In this document: one piece after another, positions 5,991-35,933 of the stretch
How the letters are laid out: every line of letters begins with the position of its first letter
How positions within the stretch are numbered: position 1 is the stretch's first letter
Source of the DNA: Okeania sp. SIO2G5
Lineage (GTDB): Bacteria > Cyanobacteriota > Cyanobacteriia > Cyanobacteriales > Microcoleaceae
Assembly: GCF_010672305.1 (NCBI RefSeq)
Contig: NZ_JAAHGX010000014.1
Coordinates: forward strand, 26,698-90,697
DNA: 64,000 nucleotides
Direction: 5' to 3'
The notes under the pieces: model-generated
Told to the model about the DNA's origin: nothing
Seen by the model: only the letters and a program-made list of their open reading frames with translations
Database searches by the model: none
Position numbers and translations under genes: made by a program

Positions 5991-7091
5991 ATGCAAACAC
6001 TTGGCAATGAAGAAAGCAGCACCATGTCTACAACTAACGACAGTGGAGTTTTCTGGACACCTGTTTGGCGATCGCTAGGCTGGTATGTTGAGGCCACTGA
6101 AGAAGAAGGTGCAGCTTTATTAGGAGGTAATATCAGGTTCAAAGACCTCTCTGGGCAATTACTAGGTGCCCATGTAGCCCATGCTGGTTTAATCATGCTG
6201 TGGGCAGGTGCCATGACACTGTTTGAGCTATCTCAGTTTGACCCCAGCGTACCAATGTACGAGCAAAAACTAATATTACTACCTCATCTAGCAACATTAG
6301 GTATTGGTATCGAAGCAGGGGTACAAACAATCGACACCTATCCCTACTATGTCATCGGTATGCTGCATCTCATCAGTTCTGCTGTTTTGGGAGCAGGAGG
6401 TATCTACCATGCAGTTTTAGGGCCGAAACAGCTTGATGAGAAAGGTTTTGGCTACGACTGGGAAGATGGCAACAAGATGACTACTATTTTGGGTATTCAT
6501 CTAGTGCTGTTGGGGGTTGGAGCATCACTATTAGTCATTAAAGCAGTGATTTTAGGTGGTATTTACGACCCACTAATAGAACAAGTAAGGTTAATACAGC
6601 CTAATCTCGATCCCGTGAGAATTTTCGGTTATCTGTTTGGCTTTAGTCCTAATGGTTGGACAATTACTGGCATGGCTAGCGTAGATAATCTCGAAGATGT
6701 AATAGGCGGTCATGTTTGGGTCAGCCTACTCTGTATTGGAGGAGGTCTCTTTCACATTATTTCCAAACCTACAGGTTGGGCAAAAAAAATACTAATCTGG
6801 TCGGGAGAAGCTTACTTGTCCTACAGTTTAGGGGCACTTGCGATCGCAGGATTTAGCGTAGCTGTCTTTGTCTCCACTAACGAAATTGTTTATCCTAGCG
6901 TGTTTTACGGTCCTATTGGCAGCGACTCTGTGCGTTCTGCTCTTGCTAGCGTTCATGCTGGATTAGGTTTTTTAGCTTTGGTCGGACACTTATGGCACGC
7001 TTATCGAGCGCGAGCTGCTACTCGTAAAGTATTTTATGGAACCTTCTTTGACTTTATGGCTAAGAATGTCACACCTATTACACCTGCATGA
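5991..7091 (+). CDS. CP43'-family chlorophyll-binding protein (IsiA/Pcb-like), copy 1
   Basis: 366 aa. MQTLGN… start resembles Isi[47 protein letters not shown] is the psbC/isiA family signature. Six predicted TM helices. Confidence 0.9.
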
Positions 7092-7143
7092 ACATGAAGT
7101 CAAAATCTAAGTTCAATCACTAATAAGAAGGAGAACAACAGCA

Positions 7144-8175
7144 ATGACTGTAGTAACTGATGAGAATCTGCAAATCCCTTGGCGGGCAGGTAATGCTCGG
7201 CTTGTTGATCTATCCGGCAAGCTATTGGGCGCTCATGTAGCCCATGCCGGTCTAATTGTACTCTGGGCTGGAGCTATTACTTTGTTTGAAGTTGCCAACT
7301 TTGAACCCTCCCTACCGATGTACGAGCAGGGCTTAATTGTACTACCTAATCTAGCCCGCTTGGGAATTGGGGTTGGTGAAGGAGGTGCCGTTGTGGATAC
7401 TTACCCCTACTTCGTGATTGGGGCACTGCATTTGATTAGTTCAGCATTTTTGGGAGCAGGTGGAATGTTCCATGCTCTCAGAGGTCCTGCCAAGCTAGAG
7501 GGTACATTTTCCTTCTTTGGCTATAGCTGGGATAATCCAGGTAAAATGACAACTATCCTGGGTATACATCTAATGCTATTGGGAATCGGAGCCTTCTTAC
7601 TTGTGGCAAAGGCGATGGCATTTGGAGGATTATACGATCCAGTAGTTCAAAATGTAAGAGTCATATCAGATCCCACTCTAAATCCGATTACCATTTTCGG
7701 CTACTTATTTGGTACAGAAGGGAAATTCTGGCTTGCTGGTGTCAACTCTCTAGAGGATGTAGTAGGCGGTCATATATGGATTGGTGCTATCTGCATTTTG
7801 GGTGGTATCTGGCATATTCGCACCGTACCCTTTACCTGGGCTAAAGGCTTATTTGTCTGGTCTGGAGAAGCATATTTGTCTTACAGTATTGGCGCAGTTA
7901 GCTTAATGGCATTTATAGCAACATTGTTTGTGTCTGTTAACTCTCTAGTATTTCCCACAGAATTTTTCGGACCAACTTTGACTCTGGTGTTCGATCGCTT
8001 TCCTGTGTTTGTTAGCTCTGATGGGGCCTTGACTGCAAGAGTATGGTTAGCTAATGCCCACTTCTGGTTAGGATTTTTCTTCCTGCAAGGACATTTATTC
8101 CACGCCCTACGTGCAGCAGGCTATAGCTTCATCGAAGGCAGAGTAGTCACATTTACAAGAGGTCAAGTAAGCTAG
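7144..8175 (+). CDS. CP43'-family chlorophyll-binding protein (IsiA/Pcb-like), copy 2
   Basis: 343 aa, paralogous to the neighbouring genes ([28 protein letters not shown]…). AAGGAG Shine-Dalgarno 9 nt upstream of the start. Confidence 0.9.
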
Positions 8176-8177
8176 TT

Positions 8178-9743
8178 ATGACTGTCACTAAATCAAATCC
8201 ATTAAGGTTTTTAGGCTTTTCGACAGATGATAATATTGATGTTACGAACTATGTTGGAGATTCCCAAGAACCCTATTCCTGGTGGGCTGGTAATTTTCGC
8301 TTTGTTAACCTGTCTGGAAAGTTATTGGGAGCGCACATTGCTCATGCAGGGTTGATTGTACTCTGGGCTGGAGCAATGACTCTGTTTGAGCTATCACAAT
8401 TCGACCCTAGCCTTCCCATGTACGACCAAGGGCTGATTTTGCTGCCCCATTTGGCGACTCTGGGTATAGGGGTTGGAGCCAATGGTGAAATTATTGATAC
8501 TTATCCCTACTTGGCTATTGGTGTTGTCCATCTGGTTAGTTCAGCAATTCTAGGCGCTGGTGGGATTTACCATGCCGTGCTTGGACCTGACAAACTTGAT
8601 GAAAAAGGGTTTGGCTACAACTGGGAAGATGGCAAAAAAATGACTACTATCCTTGGTATTCATCTTCTGCTATTAGGGATGGGAGCATTTTTGCTAGTAG
8701 TCAAAGCTATGTATTTTGATGGTTTGTATGACCCGGCAGTAGCTGATGTGAGACTGATTACTCAACCTACTCTCAACCCACAGACTATCTTCGGTTACCT
8801 AGTAGGTATTACTCCTGACGGTTGGACTCTGAAGGGTATGGCTGCTGTCAACTCTCTAGAAGATGTGGTGGGCGGTCATATATGGATTGGTAGCATCTGT
8901 ATTCTAGGTGGTATCTGGCATATTACTACTGCTCCTACTAAATGGGCTAAGGGCTTATTTGTCTGGTCGGGAGAAGCATATCTTGCTTATAGTCAGGCAG
9001 CTCTGGCTTATATGGGCTTTTTCGCAGCCTACTTTGTCTGGGTGAATGATACAGTCTATCCTTCAGTATTTTATGGTCCTGTAGGTGTGACTAATGTTGA
9101 TGGTACAATCACTCCTCGTACCTGGCTGATGTTGTTCCAACTCATCTTTGCCTGTCTACTGTGGGCTGGCCACTTCTGGCATGGTCTCAGAGCTAGAGCG
9201 ATCGCTAGTGGATTTGTCTTCAGTAATCTGAAATTCAATCCTGGTGCCCTCTATGGAGACACTCAGTTTAATAACGAATCTCTAGTTACTGGTATTGTAC
9301 AGCCTTTCCAGAACAATCCTCAATTGGGTAATTTGGCAACCCCAATTAATTCCAGTCAGCTTACCATAACTTGGGTTAAGAACTTGCCAATTTACCGCAA
9401 TGGTTTATCTCCTATTGCACGGGGTCTAGAAATTGGCATGGCTCATGGCTACCTATTATTAGGGCCTTTTCTCAAGCTCGGACCATTGCGTAACACCGAC
9501 CAAGCTCTTCTGGCTGGAGGTGGTAGTGCATCTGGCTTAGTAGTGATTTTAAGTATCTGTCTGTTTGTTTATGGGGCGGTAGTGTTTCAAGGTTCTAGAG
9601 AACCAAGAGGCGTTTTACCGGAGAACCTACAAACTTATCAGGAATGGAGTTTGTTTACCTCTGGTTTTCTCATTGGAGGACTAGGCGGTGTAGTTTTTGC
9701 CTGCTTTATCCTTATAGAAATCGGGCGAGCGGGAATTTTGTAA
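8178..9743 (+). CDS. CP43'-family chlorophyll-binding protein fused to a C-terminal PsaL-like domain (Pcb-PsaL fusion type)
   Basis: 521 aa. The N-terminal 330 aa are Pcb/IsiA-like. The C-terminal about 170 aa (…[63 protein letters not shown]…) align to PsaL (…[29 protein letters not shown]…). The gene is translationally coupled to the previous gene (TAG..ATG, 2-bp gap). Confidence 0.85.
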
Positions 9744-27717: not shown

Positions 27718-28200
27718 TCATATTTTCTACACTTATAACCTGACACCTACCAGGAAGGGTAGGGAGGATAAATCATATATTTAGGAATTAGGCATTTTTG
27801 AGTTCTAAACACTACATATCTGTAACGTTATAGTTTTTCTCGTTATATATAGTCTGTTTACCTAAATTCGGAACTATAACGTTATAGTTTTTCTCGTTAT
27901 ATATAGTTTGTTTACCTAAATTCCGAGTCGCCTACCACCTAGAACTAAAGTCCCGGTAGACAGGATAAATCATATATTTAGGAATTAGGCATTTTTGAGT
28001 TCTAGAGACGACATATCTGTAACGTTATAGTTTTTGCTCACTATATATAGTCTGTTTACCTAAATACCGATCGCCTGACACCTACCACTCAAGGAAGGGT
28101 AGGGAAAATAAATCATATATTTAAGAATTAGGGATTTTTGAGTTCTAAACACTACATATTTGTAACGTTATAGTTTTTGCTCACTATATATAGTAGTCGA
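27718..28200 (+). repeat. Complex nested tandem-repeat locus (about 190-bp macro-units x3, each containing one or two about 50-bp subunits …CTGTAACGTTATAGTTTTT(C/G)…TATATATAG…)
   Basis: Direct reading. The core GGCATTTTTGAGTTCTAAACACTACATATCTGTAACGTTATAGTTTTT is shared with the 76-bp array at 56483-56925. Confidence 0.6.
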
Positions 28201-28807: not shown

Positions 28808-28921
28808 TTTAGTACCTCATCAATGATTTTTTTACCATCTCTATTTTGGAAAAATATTAGGTGTTATTAAATAAGTTTTAGATTGAATATACAACCTAAA
28901 ATTTACCACCTACTACCTTCT

Positions 28922-30277
28922 TCAATACTTCTCAAAAACTGCTAAATTAGCTTTGAGAAAATCAATAAATTGTCGTGCCGTTCGCCCAGAGCGACCATTA
29001 TATTTCGTAGCCCATTGTAAAGCTTGATAGTCTAAATCTTCAGGATTTAGATTAATTTTTGCCTGTTTTGCCAGATGTCTAACAATTGTTAAATAAGTAT
29101 CCTGGTTAGCAGGTTCAAAAGTTAAAGTTAAGCCAAAGCGATCGCTAAAAGAAAGCTTTTCTTGAACTGTATCCCAATTATGAACCTCATCACTATCTTT
29201 TGGGCGAGGGCGATCGTTAAAAAATTCTCTAATTAAATGCCTTCTATTTGATGTAGCATAGACTACCACATTTGTTGGTCTAGCAGTTAAATTACCCTCT
29301 AAAACAACTTTAAGAGCTTTAAAAGTATCATCATCTTCTTCAAAAGAAAGATCATCTACAAAGATAATAAATTTTTGTGGAATATCGCGTAATTTTTCTG
29401 CAATTAATGGTAAATCTTTTAAGTCTGATTTAGCTACTTCCACTAAACGAAGATTGCGTTGACTATATTCATTTAATAAAGCTTTTATTAAAGAAGATTT
29501 TCCAGAACCGCGACTACCATAAAGTAATACATTAAGTGCTGAATATCCTGCTAGGAGAAATTGTGTATTTTTGATTAAGGTATCTTTTTGAAATTCATAT
29601 CCGACTAATTCTTTTAATTCAACTGGGTCGGGGTAAGTAATAGTAAGTAGTTGACCGTTACGCCATTCAAAGGCAATTGATTCAGCAAATAAACCAGTGC
29701 CATTATGATGATAATGAGTGGCTAAGGTCTCAATGGCATCTGCCCAATTTTCTAATTTTTTTAACTCGTCGTAGATAGCTTCTTTTTGTTGTGATTGTAT
29801 TTCCCACGCAATAGGGGGATTCTCTAATTTAGCTATTGTTTTTACCCACTGACTAATTGTTTTACCACTGCACTGATAAAGATTTTGTAAAATTTGTAAA
29901 TCATGTTTTGCAGCTGCAATTAAATTTGGAGATAGGCTGGTAATATTTATTTTTTGAACTTGTTGACTAAAGGGATTATCATCTTGAATAATCTGAGCAA
30001 TTAGATATTCTTGCCAGGAAATATTTTGACTAGCAATATTTCTAAACCAGTTACCATAAGCTTGAAGGCATTCTATAGCAACTCCATCATTTTTAGACAA
30101 AGATTCTAATAATTGGATAAAAGCTTCACCCACTGTTTTTTTTAGAACAGACTGATATAACAATAGAGATGCTATTTGCTGTTGTAAGTTTTGAATTTTG
30201 GCTAACACTTGGGAACCTAAACAAGACATAATTAATGATATGATTGCCTTATTAAATAAAGGATCAGCACTTAGCAC
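28922..30277 (-). CDS. P-loop NTPase of the AAA-like DUF815 type
   Basis: 451 aa. Walker A LLYGSRGSGKSSLIKALL. Walker B IIFVDDLSFEEDD. C-terminal helical domain. Lies 114 bp upstream of the TerB gene on the same strand. Confidence 0.6.
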   Translation of the reverse strand: MLSADPLFNKAIISLIMSCLGSQVLAKIQNLQQQIASLLLYQSVLKKTVGEAFIQLLESLSKNDGVAIECLQAYGNWFRNIASQNISWQEYLIAQIIQDDNPFSQQVQKINITSLSPNLIAAAKHDLQILQNLYQCSGKTISQWVKTIAKLENPPIAWEIQSQQKEAIYDELKKLENWADAIETLATHYHHNGTGLFAESIAFEWRNGQLLTITYPDPVELKELVGYEFQKDTLIKNTQFLLAGYSALNVLLYGSRGSGKSSLIKALLNEYSQRNLRLVEVAKSDLKDLPLIAEKLRDIPQKFIIFVDDLSFEEDDDTFKALKVVLEGNLTARPTNVVVYATSNRRHLIREFFNDRPRPKDSDEVHNWDTVQEKLSFSDRFGLTLTFEPANQDTYLTIVRHLAKQAKINLNPEDLDYQALQWATKYNGRSGRTARQFIDFLKANLAVFEKY

Positions 30278-30692
30278 TCAGCAATTAGTAGGAGCATTTT
30301 TTTTAGGTTTAGAAGGGGATTTCAACTCCTACTAAACTATCTGAAACAATATTTGTTAGAGATTTTAACCCAAACTCAAAAAACTTTATAATAGCTGATA
30401 GCTTACCACTGGATACTTACCTATTTCTTTGGCGTAATGTAAATCTATGTAATTCTATAATAAATTTTACTCTTTGTAGTTATAAACCACTATTTTTTTA
30501 CATTTACTTAAGATGCAATTTAAGATCGAGAAATATTTCAAAAAATGTTATTGAATAGTTGAAAATTTCATTTTTAATCATAGTTTAATAATTATTGAAT
30601 CTTGATTAAGCAATATTAAGTTTTGATAAATTGGCTAGCTATTGCCACAAATAAGCTGTATAAGTTAGTTTTAGTTTTAGGAGTTAATAATA

Positions 30693-31031
30693 ATGACTAT
30701 AAATATCGCCATAATAGCAGCGATCGCCTATGGTATATTAGCCATTGTTGGGGGCATTATTGGATATACGAAAGTAGGCAGCAAAATATCTTTAATATCT
30801 GGTAGTATCAGTGGTTTACTACTAATTGTTAGTGGAATTATTCAACTAATGGGCATGAATTGGGGTCTAATATTTTCTACCCTCATTACAACTATTCTAG
30901 TAATTACATTCATTATTCGTTTAGCAAAAACTCGTAAAATGATGCCTGCGGGATTAATGATTTTAACTGGAGTTGCTGCTGTAGCAGTTATGGTTTATGA
31001 AATTACCATAAACAATTCAGCCACAATTTAA
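30693..31031 (+). CDS. small 4-TM membrane protein (TMEM14/UPF0136-like)
   Basis: 112 aa with four hydrophobic helices rich in G/A/I. GGAG-type Shine-Dalgarno (AGGAGTTAATAATAATG). Confidence 0.55.
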   Translation: MTINIAIIAAIAYGILAIVGGIIGYTKVGSKISLISGSISGLLLIVSGIIQLMGMNWGLIFSTLITTILVITFIIRLAKTRKMMPAGLMILTGVAAVAVMVYEITINNSATI

Positions 31032-31326
31032 AAAGAAACGTAAGTATTTAGCCGTCAGCTTTCAGCTCCATTAGAACTAATGACTATAGCCTTTAAAGCA
31101 GAAGTTACCATTGACAGATTTTATCTAATTAAAAATATGAATTAAAAGTTTCCCTAGTAACTTCTAAAGTCTTAAAAAATGCTTACTTCATTTATTAATC
31201 AAGATGAGAGCTGACCACTAATCACTGTTTGTGGAGCATTCAGGCACGGAAATCCTTATACCAATTTCATAAACTTGAGCTACTTAGGTTTGGAGTAGTC
31301 AGTAGTCAGTAGTCAGTAGTCAGGAG

Positions 31327-31350
31327 GTAAGGTGAGTAGCCTTACTTTTT
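31327..31350 (+). terminator. Candidate intrinsic terminator: hairpin GTAAGG-TGAGTAG-CCTTAC followed by T5
   Basis: Direct reading. Immediately follows a (CAGTAGT)x4 heptamer repeat. Confidence 0.35.
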
Positions 31351-31622
31351 GAATTTGGTATTACAAAGAAACAAAGAATATGGAAGAGATAAAAAAGTAG
31401 AAACTTGCTCAATAGACATATAGATATCTCCAGAAAAGAGATAACAGGTAACAGGAAGAAATAATAGAAATCATCAATTATTTCTCCCTACTCCCCTACT
31501 CCCCTACTCCCTGCTCCCTACTCCCTACTCCCTAAATTGGGATTAATCAACCCATTAGCCGTACCAAAAATATTAATTGGACTCTTACCATCAGTAATTA
31601 AAACACTCTGAAGACCAAGCCC

Positions 31623-33179
31623 CTACAACAACCTCGCCTGCATTTCTGGGCCATCTTGAGCGATCGCCCGAATTGTCTCAGCCCCCAAAGCCTCCACTTT
31701 TTGCTGAAACTCAGTAGCAGTAATTTCAGCCATTTGCCTTGCCTTCTCAATCTCTAAATTATTCAGTGTCTGCTGATGGGCTAACTCAGTCTCCTGACGC
31801 GCCCTCAACTGAGCCATCTCAGCCTCATGGCGAATCCGTGCTGCTTCTACTTCCTGCTGCGCCAAATTCACCGCCAACTGGCCTTGAAAAGGAGATAACA
31901 TATAAGCTTGAGGTCCATTGACTAATTTTAGTTCCCCACTTTGAACATCCCGTACATATATACCTTCATTTTTGTCTAGGGGAATAGCCTGAAGTTTTTC
32001 TAATACTTCTAATTCCACTGGGGGAATATAATCTCTTGGCCCAGTAATCATCCATAAATCTCCTGGTTGCCGAGTAATAACGTTTGCTCCTGTTCCCTCG
32101 GTGAAAGTTTCCTCAACTCTGATTAGGAGTGCTTCTTGTTCACCAAGAATATAGACCTTTTTAATTCCTGTTTCTAAATCTTCTCCTGGGTGCAAAAAGA
32201 AAGATGTTCTGCCCTGACGCACTTCTTTCATACCCCACTGCGGTTTACCATCTGCATCTATGGGATTAGTTACTATGCACCATTCGCGATCGCTTAAAGT
32301 AGTGATTTTGACTTCTCCCACTACTTCTTCATAAACGTCGGGAATATGAATTTCAGCATCTGCAAAAGTAACTAACTATTCATCTCCCGCTTTGCGTTGC
32401 TGACCAAAAATATCAGTAAAAGTCCGTTTTGCTTTTAGATGTAGTGCTTGACGTTCGGTTAATACATAGGCATCAATAGTATCGACAATTTCTTCATCTA
32501 CTCCAGGCAAATAAGCACCTTCTTCCCTGACCAACCATTATTCCCCAGTTCTACGTCTGTTACCTTGACGATCTATACAATTTTGTCGTGCCAGCAGTCG
32601 TAAGGCTTGGTTAGGTTTAATTATTTTAGCTATAACTGTGACTACCACTTCAACTTCTACCCTGGGAGTGTAAGTTCCTGGCCCCTCAAATAACCATTCA
32701 TCCCCTGTCGTACGAGTGACAGTTTGAGACTCTCCTGCAACGGTGACTGTATCAGTAAAATCTCGTATTGCTTTGAGACGTAGAGTTTGGTTTGTGTCAA
32801 TTACTTGTAGTTGAGTTACATCTTCTTCGAGTATTTCTCCTGGATATAGTGGGAAAGTGTCTTGAGCAAAGCGAATTTCCAGATCGCCATATTTGAGTCT
32901 AATTTAACCATACTCATCGGCCACAAGTTGATCTGAACTATTTCTTAGTACAGGGTTAGTTACTACACAATAATGGCGAGGTGGAACTACAATTGTCAGT
33001 TGTGGTTGTAAGACTAACCTTTCTGCATCTCCAAGGGTAATGGTTTGAGGGCCTATTTCTAGTCTGGTGACACCAGTGTTATTGTCAAGAACATGAATAT
33101 ACTGTTGTGGCTTCAGGAGAATTATACCATTGTTCTCTATTGTAATTGGATATTCTGTGGTACTTTTTATTTTACTCAT
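31623..33179 (-). pseudogene. Major vault protein (MVP) homolog with vault repeat domains and C-terminal coiled coil, interrupted by three in-frame nonsense codons (TAA 32904-32906, TAA 32538-32540, TAG 32377-32379) and no frameshifts
   Basis: One continuous minus-strand frame of 519 codons. N-terminus YIHVLDNNTGVTRLEIGPQT…VVPPRHYCVVTNPV matches the eukaryotic MVP N-terminus ([20 protein letters not shown]…VPPRHYCTVANPV). Repeat motifs [30 protein letters not shown] and GDE*LVTFADAEIHIPDVYEE are present. The middle region matches …GPDGKNQLG…SFFLQPGEQLEQGIQDVYVL…AIPLDENEGIYV…. C-terminal TIRAIAQDGPEMQARLL matches MVP STIRDLAVAGPEMQVKLL. Segments 2 and 3 lack any Met. Confidence 0.75.
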
Positions 33180-33242
33180 AGTTTAATAGTTTTGTAACTA
33201 GGAATTTTAAGTTATTCATTATCCATTATTAATTATCTCTTA

Positions 33243-35621
33243 CTATCGTCGCCAAATTTTAATAGTTCTGTCTTTACTACCACTAGCAATACTATTACCA
33301 TCAGGACTAAAAGTAACTGTATAAATCTCATCTTTATGCCCGGTCAAAGTACTAACTAATTCTCCTGTTTCTAAATCCCATATCTTAATATTATTATCCT
33401 TACTGCCACTAGCAATATATCGACCATCTTCGCTAATATCAACAGATACAACTTCAGCAGTATGACCAAGAATAGTTTTGATTAATTCTCCTGTTTTTAA
33501 GCTCCAAATTTTAATAGTATTATCGTAACTCCCACTCACTATTTTTTCCCCATCTGGACTAATATCAACAGACCTAATTACTCCTTCATGTCCAGTCAAT
33601 GTATTAATTAATTCTCCAGTATATAAATCTTCAATTTTTATAGTTTGATCTGCACTACCACTAACCAATATTCTGCCGTCAGGACTAATAGCAATAGAAT
33701 AAACTACATCTGAGTGATCGGGGAAATTAAAAATTAAGAAACCTGTTTCTAAATCCCAAACTTTAACTGTTTTATCTCCACTAGCACTAGCAATTGTTTG
33801 ATTATCAGAACTCATAGCAACTGACCAAACAGGTGCCCAATGTTCAAATACTCGAAATAATTCTCCTGTTTCCAAATTCCAGATCATTACTCTCCAATCA
33901 TAAGTACCTACCACTAATTTAGTACCATTATTATTCAAAGCAACTGACCAAATTGGAGAATCATCTGCAGCTAATGTGTTGATAACTTTTCCTGTAGGAA
34001 CTTCTAAAATTTTTACCGTTGTGTCTCTACTTCCAGTAACTAAAGTTTTGCCATTAGAACTAAATGCAAGAGTACCTATAGAAGCATTAAACCTAGACAA
34101 ATCTTCAACTTGATAATTCTGCCAATTTATACCTTGTTGACAATTTTGTAAAAGAGATTGAGCTTCAGCAAAAATGCTAGATTTTTCACTAATTAAAGTT
34201 CCTTGATTAATACATTCTTCATAGTTGCGCTCTATGTATAAGTTTTTTACAAAATTAAATTTTGCCGATTCTTGTTCTTGCTGTTGTAATACTTGTTGTT
34301 GACGTAATTGTAAATAATTTTGGAATTTAAGATATCTATATATAGCAAAGATTATTACAATTAAGGTAGCGATAAATCCTAAAATCAACTGCCAGTTAAA
34401 AGATGATTGTTTGTTATTATTGCTAAATATTTTTTTAAATTTAGTAAGTAGAGATTTTGGTAAAACTCTGTTTTCTATTAATTCTATATCTTCTTGAGTT
34501 AGTCCTAAAATTTGCTGTAGACGCTCTAACTCCTGGCGAGTTTCTTGACTAAAAGGATATTCTTCCTGAATCGCAGCTTTTAATGTTTCTTCATATCTTT
34601 CTCCTTTCATCCGATATTTACGGTAAGGATTTAATACTTCATCCTCAATTATTTCCGTTTCTTCCCGGGAGAGTTCTAAACTTTCTCTAAGTTCATCTAA
34701 AATTCTTCTCCCGACAATAGAAATATCTCCTCTATCGCTAGCTCGACGAATAACCTCTTCCCGATAAATTTCTTTATTATCTGTAGCGAAACTTGGAAAC
34801 TCATTAATTTTTTTTAAATCTGCTATAACTTCTGCTGCTGACTGGTAACGTTCGTGAAAGTTATAGCGCACCATTTTATCTAAAATATCTGCTAGAGAAG
34901 TAGAACAATTTGTTAGGTATCGCCAAAAAATCTCTTTTTTTTCACCATTTTCATTATCCTTTAGTTTCGATAATTCGCTGCTAGGCAATCCCGTAATTGC
35001 CTGAATGCCAATCATTCCTAAAGCATAAATATCACTATTGAATTGGGGATTATATTCAAATTGTTCAATTGGCATATATTCCATTGTGCCAATCCTAGCT
35101 GTACGATTTTGCTGACCAATATTAATTTCTTTAACAGCTCCAAAATCAATTAATACTAATTGATTATCCGATTTTCTTCTAATTAAATTAGCAGGCTTAA
35201 TATCTCGATGAATAACACTATTTTCATGCACAAATACTAAAATTTCTAATACTTCATTGAGAATTAAAATTACTTGTTTTTCAGATAGGGGTTTACCTGG
35301 TAATATTTCATTGTCTAAAGATTGACCAGGAATAAAAGATTGAACTAGAAAAAACTCTCGATCTTCTTCAAAATATGCAAGTAGTTTAGGAATTCGATCA
35401 TGTTGAGAAAGCTTTTCTAGCATCTGTGCTTCTTTTTGAAATCGATCGCGAACGATATTAATTAATCTTCGATCATAAATACTTGGTTGCAGATGCTTAA
35501 TAAAACATTGTGCTTCTCCAGGACGACGAATGTCTAAGGCCAGATAAGCATGGCCAATTTCCCCTGATTCAATAATTTTAATAATTTGATAGCGTCCATC
35601 TAAAATATTACCAATCATCAT
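33243..35621 (-). CDS. Ser/Thr protein kinase with TM segment and C-terminal WD40 beta-propeller
   Basis: 792 aa. Kinase subdomains (…HRDIKPANLI…DFG…), a helical linker, a TM helix (LILGFIATLIVIIFAIY), then at least 7 WD40 repeats (…GSRDTTVKI…SGDKTVKVWDL…SGSADQTIKI…SGSYDNTIKIWSL…SGSKDNNIKIWDL…SGSKDRTIKIW). Confidence 0.9.
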   Translation of the reverse strand: MMIGNILDGRYQIIKIIESGEIGHAYLALDIRRPGEAQCFIKHLQPSIYDRRLINIVRDRFQKEAQMLEKLSQHDRIPKLLAYFEEDREFFLVQSFIPGQSLDNEILPGKPLSEKQVILILNEVLEILVFVHENSVIHRDIKPANLIRRKSDNQLVLIDFGAVKEINIGQQNRTARIGTMEYMPIEQFEYNPQFNSDIYALGMIGIQAITGLPSSELSKLKDNENGEKKEIFWRYLTNCSTSLADILDKMVRYNFHERYQSAAEVIADLKKINEFPSFATDNKEIYREEVIRRASDRGDISIVGRRILDELRESLELSREETEIIEDEVLNPYRKYRMKGERYEETLKAAIQEEYPFSQETRQELERLQQILGLTQEDIELIENRVLPKSLLTKFKKIFSNNNKQSSFNWQLILGFIATLIVIIFAIYRYLKFQNYLQLRQQQVLQQQEQESAKFNFVKNLYIERNYEECINQGTLISEKSSIFAEAQSLLQNCQQGINWQNYQVEDLSRFNASIGTLAFSSNGKTLVTGSRDTTVKILEVPTGKVINTLAADDSPIWSVALNNNGTKLVVGTYDWRVMIWNLETGELFRVFEHWAPVWSVAMSSDNQTIASASGDKTVKVWDLETGFLIFNFPDHSDVVYSIAISPDGRILVSGSADQTIKIEDLYTGELINTLTGHEGVIRSVDISPDGEKIVSGSYDNTIKIWSLKTGELIKTILGHTAEVVSVDISEDGRYIASGSKDNNIKIWDLETGELVSTLTGHKDEIYTVTFSPDGNSIASGSKDRTIKIWRR

Positions 35622-35933
35622 TATTGTGGTAGAGCCTTTTTTAGTTGATTATGGCATGAAACAATTTACTCATTTTGACATCTACAATTATAAAAAAAAT
35701 AGTTTTAATTAAGAATATTTTCCTGATTCCAAAACTGAAAATTAGAAGTTTAATTGTAACCCTTAATCATTAATTGATAGAGATATGTTACTCCAGAACA
35801 CAAATTAATTCTGATAAAAAGTGTAATATAGAAACCAAAATAATAATTTTGGCCACTCAAAACAAAAGCACAATTTTAACAGTGCTATCATAGACAGAAG
35901 CAAAGCTAAAATCAGGTATAGGGAGTTAAGTGG

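Follow-up and report, generated by a model that had tools for sequence, protein, structure and literature searches.

A probable pseudogene of the cyanobacterial major vault protein in Okeania sp. SIO2G5

The window analyzed here is a 64,000-nucleotide (nt) stretch of Okeania sp. SIO2G5 (contig NZ_JAAHGX010000014.1, positions 26,698 to 90,697), in which a minus-strand frame at 31518–33179 corresponds to the gene for major vault protein (MVP). With a probability of roughly 0.93, we regard this frame as a non-functional, recently inactivated relic of a cyanobacterial MVP gene in an O. hirsuta-type genome. The locus is a case of ordinary gene loss in a known cyanobacterial MVP family and presents no new system. 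A reading made earlier from the sequence alone (the original prediction) had described an MVP homolog of 519 codons with three nonsense codons and no indels, adjacent to a kinase-WD40 gene. The features of the relic are as follows.

31518–33179, minus strand: MVP pseudogene, 553 sense or formerly sense codons, closed by the natural TAG at 31518–31520
32904–32906, minus strand: nonsense codon 1 (codon 92), CAA to TAA, at the Gln of YGQIRL in all homologs
32538–32540, minus strand: nonsense codon 2 (codon 214), GAA to TAA, replacing the invariant Glu of GEEWLV
32376–32378, minus strand: nonsense codon 3 (codon 268), TGG to TAG, replacing the invariant Trp of GDEWLV
31887–31889, minus strand: hybrid TTT codon at the junction of a 942-nt in-frame deletion
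31623–31625, minus strand: nonsense codon 4 (codon 519), GAG to TAG, replacing the conserved Glu/Gln of RLLEGLGL
31484–31534, no strand assigned: heptanucleotide tandem array of seven copies, overlapping the end of the MVP frame (final codons and natural stop)

Homology to the eukaryotic protein, as originally proposed, is firmly established: a Pfam search of the relic matched Vault (PF01505) in four stretches (9.4e-64) and Vault_2 (PF17794) in two (9.8e-35), and a phmmer search against solved structures matched rat MVP (7pkz_A) at 4.3e-162. The match to rat MVP falls into two blocks, in which query residues 17–430 correspond to rat residues 5–410 and query residues 431–546 to rat residues 735–850. 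Identity is 88% to P0001, the 924-residue protein of an intact relative, and 86% to P0002, the intact 926-residue MVP of Okeania sp. SIO3I5. By these comparisons, the relic is an ortholog of both the cyanobacterial and the eukaryotic MVP. On translation, the frame opens at ATG 33179 and runs 519 codons to 31623 with three internal stops, and the two middle segments contain no Met, as predicted. The frame end placed at 31623 proved wrong, however; 31623–31625 is the fourth nonsense codon, past which the frame reads on to the true stop at 31518–31520 with a C-terminus (...NPNLGSRE) identical to that of P0001.

Each of the four stops (Q92, E214, W268, and E519) lies one substitution from a sense codon, and the expectation that the first three would fall at Gln, Glu, and Trp codons was correct. 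The two TAA codons stand where they had been placed, at 32904–32906 and 32538–32540, whereas the TAG lies at 32376–32378, one base from the predicted 32377–32379.

The claims of whole-length alignment and of no indels fail. In an alignment of the read-through relic with six intact cyanobacterial homologs (A1), a gap sits between YMLSP and QGQLAV; the 314 codons (942 nt) missing there, between codons 430 and 432, correspond to residues 488–801 of P0002 and 411–734 of rat MVP. When P0002 was used as a tblastn query, residues 1–487 and 802–918 were matched in one common frame. Microhomology at the junction amounts to only 1–2 nt at the DNA level. In the rat vault structure (Tanaka et al. 2009), residues 411–734 cover the final repeats, the SPFH-like shoulder, and the cap helix in its N-terminal half. 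The relic has lost the remainder of the Vault_4/R8–R9 repeats, all of the shoulder, and half of the cap helix, the first; it keeps vault repeats ~R1–R7/8, the C-terminal cap-helix half (the part equal to rat 735–850), and the cap-ring motif. Consistent with this, the profile search of the relic returned no match to MVP_shoulder (PF11978) or Vault_3 and only a partial one to Vault_4 (4.4e-08, profile positions 1–30 of 63), unlike the 120 top homologs, all 120 of which have MVP_shoulder and complete Vault_3 and Vault_4. Where the family has an uninterrupted open reading frame (ORF) of 860–930 codons, the relic has 553 codons and four in-frame stops, a reduction in length of about 40%. Given the stops and the loss of the shoulder and cap helix, this gene is predicted to be incapable of yielding a 78-mer vault shell.

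A scan of species-representative genomes identified a near-identical locus in O. hirsuta PAB10Feb10-1 (NZ_RCBY01000026.1; L003), 99.3% identical over 1921 nt, with 14 substitutions and one 101-bp insertion as the differences from the window; this was the single MVP locus that the pattern-based scan recovered for O. hirsuta. None of these touches the four stops or the deletion junction, so all of the lesions are common to both strains. This bears directly on the idea, allowed by the original prediction, that the gene is intact in the living organism and that the stops arose in sequencing or assembly or are strain alleles. That each stop is one base from a sense codon would suit such an explanation, but identical lesions in two independent assemblies exclude both sequencing error and strain-private alleles, NZ_RCBY01000026.1 carries additional lesions, and the deletion by itself, stops aside, costs the gene its shoulder and half its cap helix. 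We give this explanation next to no credence.

The additional lesions in PAB10Feb10-1 include two further stops (L57, TTA to TGA; E512, GAA to TAA) along with five missense and two synonymous changes in the relic, and the changes private to the window are three missense substitutions at conserved sites; of the 12 changes that separate the strains, 10 are non-synonymous. The lesions are thus genuine, and decay is ongoing independently in the sister strains. The fragment ORFs are broken anew in PAB10Feb10-1, the N-terminal piece by L57* together with the insertion and the C-terminal piece by E512*.

Two further differences between the strains were recorded. The 101-bp insertion (L003:10239–10339; site matching window 32941/32942) lies in the relic, ends in 13-nt imperfect terminal inverted repeats, AGCAATGAGCGCT...AGCGCACATTGCT, and has the look of a miniature inverted-repeat transposable element; neither the window nor any of the fetched loci contained a further copy. 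In addition, GTCACC is changed to GTTATC (two C to T changes 2 nt apart) twice in PAB10Feb10-1, at window 33067/33069 and 32743/32745, both inside the MVP relic and accounting for two of the nine such hexamers in 21.7 kb. This double change could reflect context-specific mutation, e.g., deamination at a methylated motif, or chance.

The ratio of non-synonymous to synonymous substitution rates (dN/dS) between the relic and intact relatives is 0.14–0.18, not above the 0.23 found between two intact genes, and therefore the gene was under selection through most of its history. Inactivation, which had been proposed to be very recent, can accordingly be described as fairly recent. A neutral period is nonetheless detectable at conserved sites: across 226 alignment columns nearly invariant among 121 sequences, the relic deviates 11 times (3 stops and 8 missense changes), whereas the 120 intact homologs average 0.75 deviations and never exceed 6. 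The locus thus combines disabling lesions reproduced in an independent genome with relaxed constraint and lineage-specific lesions, as expected of a pseudogene.

The original prediction regarded three nonsense codons without any indel as an unusual pattern of decay, a picture that arose because the 942-nt deletion and the fourth stop had been overlooked. Under six mutation spectra, the expected probability that a non-synonymous change is a nonsense change is 0.06–0.09. Among private changes, 2 of 10 are nonsense, which is not significant, and we rejected nonsense-rich decay as an unusual pattern, the excess being marginal and the decay unremarkable once the 942-nt deletion is included.

Several observations weigh against a simple pseudogene. 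The nonsense share is somewhat high (3 of the 11 conserved-site hits; p = 0.03–0.06, post hoc), the relic shows no small frameshifting indels, and its one large deletion preserves the frame. There may also be residual translation of fragments, for which the candidates are a 91-amino acid (aa) N-terminal piece and a 232-aa GTG-initiated piece at 31623–32321.

The corresponding alternative is that the relic is still expressed, either by read-through or recoding or as functional truncated mini-proteins, and it draws on the frame being held along the entire relic and across the deletion and on the low dN/dS. A low ratio, however, is what a brief neutral phase after prolonged selection would leave, and replacements at conserved sites are ~10 times the usual number. 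No single reassigned codon fits the lesions, which are TAA and TAG here with TGA and TAA added in PAB10Feb10-1; the adjacent kinase ORF uses TAG as its stop; and each fragment ORF is broken further in the sister strain. We consider continued expression very improbable.

The history that we favor starts from a single-copy MVP gene of ~870–925 aa with the full architecture, from vault repeats through shoulder and cap helix to cap ring. An illegitimate in-frame deletion of 942 nt took domains needed for shell closure, four single-base nonsense substitutions hit conserved Q, E, W, and E codons, and missense changes accrued at otherwise invariant positions. No fragment is expected to be able to build a vault shell, and none has been kept as an ORF between strains. 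The kinase-WD40 gene is an independent gene still under selection, and the MVP slot between it and Tmemb_14–DUF815 comes from inherited gene order. The lesions, their presence in both strains, the relaxed constraint, and the synteny are demonstrated; the order of the lesions and the absence of a protein product are parts of this history that we infer.

The surroundings of the relic include the following features.

33243–35621, minus strand: intact Ser/Thr kinase-WD40 gene, 792 aa, with Pkinase and seven WD40 repeats (Pfam)
33180–33242, minus strand: 63-bp kinase–MVP spacer (stop codon to start codon), with no terminator-like site on the minus strand
30693–31031, plus strand: Tmemb_14-family gene, 112 aa, a conserved downstream neighbor on the opposite strand, part of the synteny block
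28922–30277, minus strand: DUF815 AAA-type ATPase gene, conserved, in the same synteny block

The upstream gene is as originally described, a membrane-spanning Ser/Thr kinase with seven WD40 repeats, co-oriented with MVP at a distance of 63 bp; its one hydrophobic, presumably transmembrane, helix lies at ~aa 409–430. From this arrangement, the original prediction had suggested an operon. In its fuller form, the proposal is that kinase-WD40 and MVP constitute a two-gene unit or operon, e.g., with a membrane kinase regulating vault assembly, and that the window shows the pair just after inactivation of MVP. Co-orientation, the short spacer, and the lack of a terminator-like site between the genes are in keeping with it; a promoter and terminator scan of 31200–35900 returned sites no more frequently than shuffled sequence did. 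We searched 76 fetched locus records by tblastn with the window kinase, the linker, the WD40 region, and DUF815 as queries, and the order kinase-then-MVP was found in Okeania, in Dapis, and in the metagenome-assembled genomes (MAGs) L054, L061, and L063, with L081 added later. The spacers are ~80–200 bp in Okeania SIO3I5, Dapis, and a second lineage (L054, L061, L063, and L081), and in that second lineage the adjacency is kept although the downstream genes differ.

Set against this, the adjacency occurs in 7 of the 73 loci compared (the window counted), plus L081, and no such kinase is near ~65 of the 72 other MVP loci. Clustering of 971 ORFs from 73 loci revealed no universal MVP neighbor, only lineage-restricted clusters, the two largest non-MVP clusters being generic response-regulator/histidine kinases and pentapeptide-repeat proteins. 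The adjacency is also nested in a longer inherited block whose order is 149-aa gene, kinase, [MVP], Tmemb_14, DUF815, 148-aa gene, and 4HBT. Full-length kinase orthologs are found throughout the Microcoleaceae, including species with no MVP at the site: in Trichodesmium erythraeum, Tmemb_14 comes 158 bp after the kinase, with DUF815, the 148-aa gene, and 4HBT next in order, and traces of MVP sought between kinase and Tmemb_14 were not found; in Microcoleus vaginatus, two other genes lie between kinase and Tmemb_14. In Kamptonema, the contig ends at the kinase. The kinase is likewise intact where MVP is dead, in O. hirsuta, Okeania SIO2C2, and Dapis. Kinase and MVP are therefore neither retained nor lost together, and the synteny block is a family-level feature of which MVP is an optional occupant. 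An N-terminal kinase with one transmembrane helix would, moreover, place the WD40 propeller across the membrane from a cytoplasmic vault.

The pairing is thus confined to a few Oscillatoriales lineages, within a larger block whose kinase persists without MVP, and we judge a functional unit unlikely as an account of this locus. The adjacency kept in L054, L061, L063, and L081 leaves a slim but real share of probability to a facultative operon, and it is similarly doubtful, if conceivable, that in a subset of Oscillatoriales (the Okeania/Dapis clade and the L054/L061/L063/L081 lineage) the two genes really are co-transcribed, with the kinase acting to modulate a bacterial vault. An exact-product look-up of the window kinase, P0123, and P0124 returned nothing on record.

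Comparison of window 28900–33240 with Okeania sp. SIO2C2 (L077) gave 96–98% nt identity up to the kinase stop codon, then 80% in the MVP remnant, 83% in Tmemb_14, and 91% in DUF815, returning to 93–97% beyond. This dip in identity, centered on the MVP slot, looks like a tract of recombination or introgression.

The statement that MVP is rare in bacteria is outdated. Our search produced 2605 database hits, with full-length genes in 70 of the species-representative loci. Intact MVP of 860–930 aa with all five Pfam domains is abundant in filamentous cyanobacteria and occurs also in Thiomargarita/Beggiatoa-like and Anaerolineae MAGs, and the anticipated intact alleles in relatives do exist, e.g., in Okeania SIO3I5. 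Full-length MVPs of 61–68% identity were noted in Thiotrichaceae, Thiomargarita, Ca. Parabeggiatoa, Anaerolineales, and Chloroflexaceae (L047, L055, L056, L057, L059, L060, and L062). The distribution points to a bias toward large filamentous bacteria. Cyanobacterial MVP homologs and their mis-annotation as "colicin uptake" proteins have been described (Daly et al. 2013, PMC3762200; Sokolskyi 2019, bioRxiv 10.1101/872010).

Among the cyanobacterial MVPs are those of Moorena/Lyngbya (F4Y3B4), Oscillatoria acuminata (K9TKX8), and Allocoleopsis (Microcoleus) PCC 7113 (K9WB38), annotated as "colicin uptake protein" or "major vault protein". The relic resembles them at 72–88% aa identity over its retained parts and in the motifs YIHVLD/PPRHYC, the GDEWL repeats, and the GPEMQARLL...ITDG.SPINLF end; unlike these proteins of 860–930 aa with Vault_3, Vault_4, and MVP_shoulder, it lacks 314 codons and contains four stops. 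Eukaryotic MVP (rat, mouse, and human; PDB 4V60, 4HL8, and 7PKZ) is matched at E = 4e-162, the repeats residue-for-residue to 5–410 and the tail to 735–850, but the relic differs from it in lacking residues 411–734 and in its interrupted frame. No Rfam match to vault RNA was found at the gathering threshold in the 64-kb window, nor one to any other RNA family of relevance, and no TROVE, NACHT, or PARP domain indicative of the partners TEP1 or vPARP was found in the neighbors examined. The seven-bladed propeller of the kinase-WD40 neighbor does cross-hit the TEP1 β-propeller Pfam models. Unlike TEP1, which combines TROVE, NACHT, and WD40, the neighbor has a Ser/Thr kinase domain and a transmembrane helix with no TROVE or NACHT; its TEP1 matches rank far below those to generic WD40 families, and the gene is kept without MVP at the locus.

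Loss of MVP is not restricted to the window. In Dapis sp. BLCC M229, the gene has another deletion and frameshifts beside an intact kinase; in Okeania sp. SIO2F4, there is a frameshift on a contig too short to show the neighbors; in Okeania sp. SIO2C2, ~90 shredded C-terminal codons are left; and large deletions mark the copies in Floridaenema evergladense (L074) and MAG MFD03250 (L076) as relics. The Dapis and SIO2C2 relics represent the same gene in the same chromosomal slot under loss. Because the lesions differ in each of these relics, the losses are independent; the window copy, its deletion aside, is the least decayed. Interrupted MVP was also seen in Hormoscilla GM7CHS1pb (L065) and MAG MFD01721 (L068). 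Single frameshifts in long-read MAGs may be assembly errors.

P0001 and P0002, the nearest intact MVPs, contain a 54-aa acidic insert (residues ~347–400; L004:11017–11162, L001) that is a part-duplicate of the preceding KEVRQG.TSFF, is flanked by GAAACAG direct repeats, and is missing from the window and from all other cyanobacterial MVPs examined. It may be a gain in P0001/P0002 or a precise loss in the window.

The frame is properly annotated as an MVP pseudogene at 31518–33179, neither as a 519-codon gene nor as several small ORFs. MVP appears to have been repeatedly dispensable in Okeania, Dapis, and Trichodesmium, yet many other filamentous cyanobacteria keep it under purifying selection, and this contrast offers a comparative handle on the function of the bacterial vault protein. 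The loss in the window would then reflect dispensability of MVP in the marine clade. If the kinase–MVP pair were real, Okeania, Dapis, and Trichodesmium would provide a natural loss series (intact, recently dead, shredded, and absent) for working out bacterial vaults.

Elsewhere in the window, a 143-bp unit present in 2.2 repeats at 27877–28194, downstream of a TerB-like gene, differs in copy number from PAB10Feb10-1, and a second heptanucleotide array lies at 31294–31323, besides the one at 31484–31534. At 5991–9743 on the plus strand, three tandem ORFs of 366, 343, and 521 aa each contain a strong antisense match to the Rfam family IsrR (121–139 bits; minus strand, 6459–6633, 7528–7705, and 8622–8799). 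IsrR is an antisense regulator of isiA. The antisense match in each ORF therefore suggests a putative three-gene isiA/CP43′-like array with one antisense RNA per gene.

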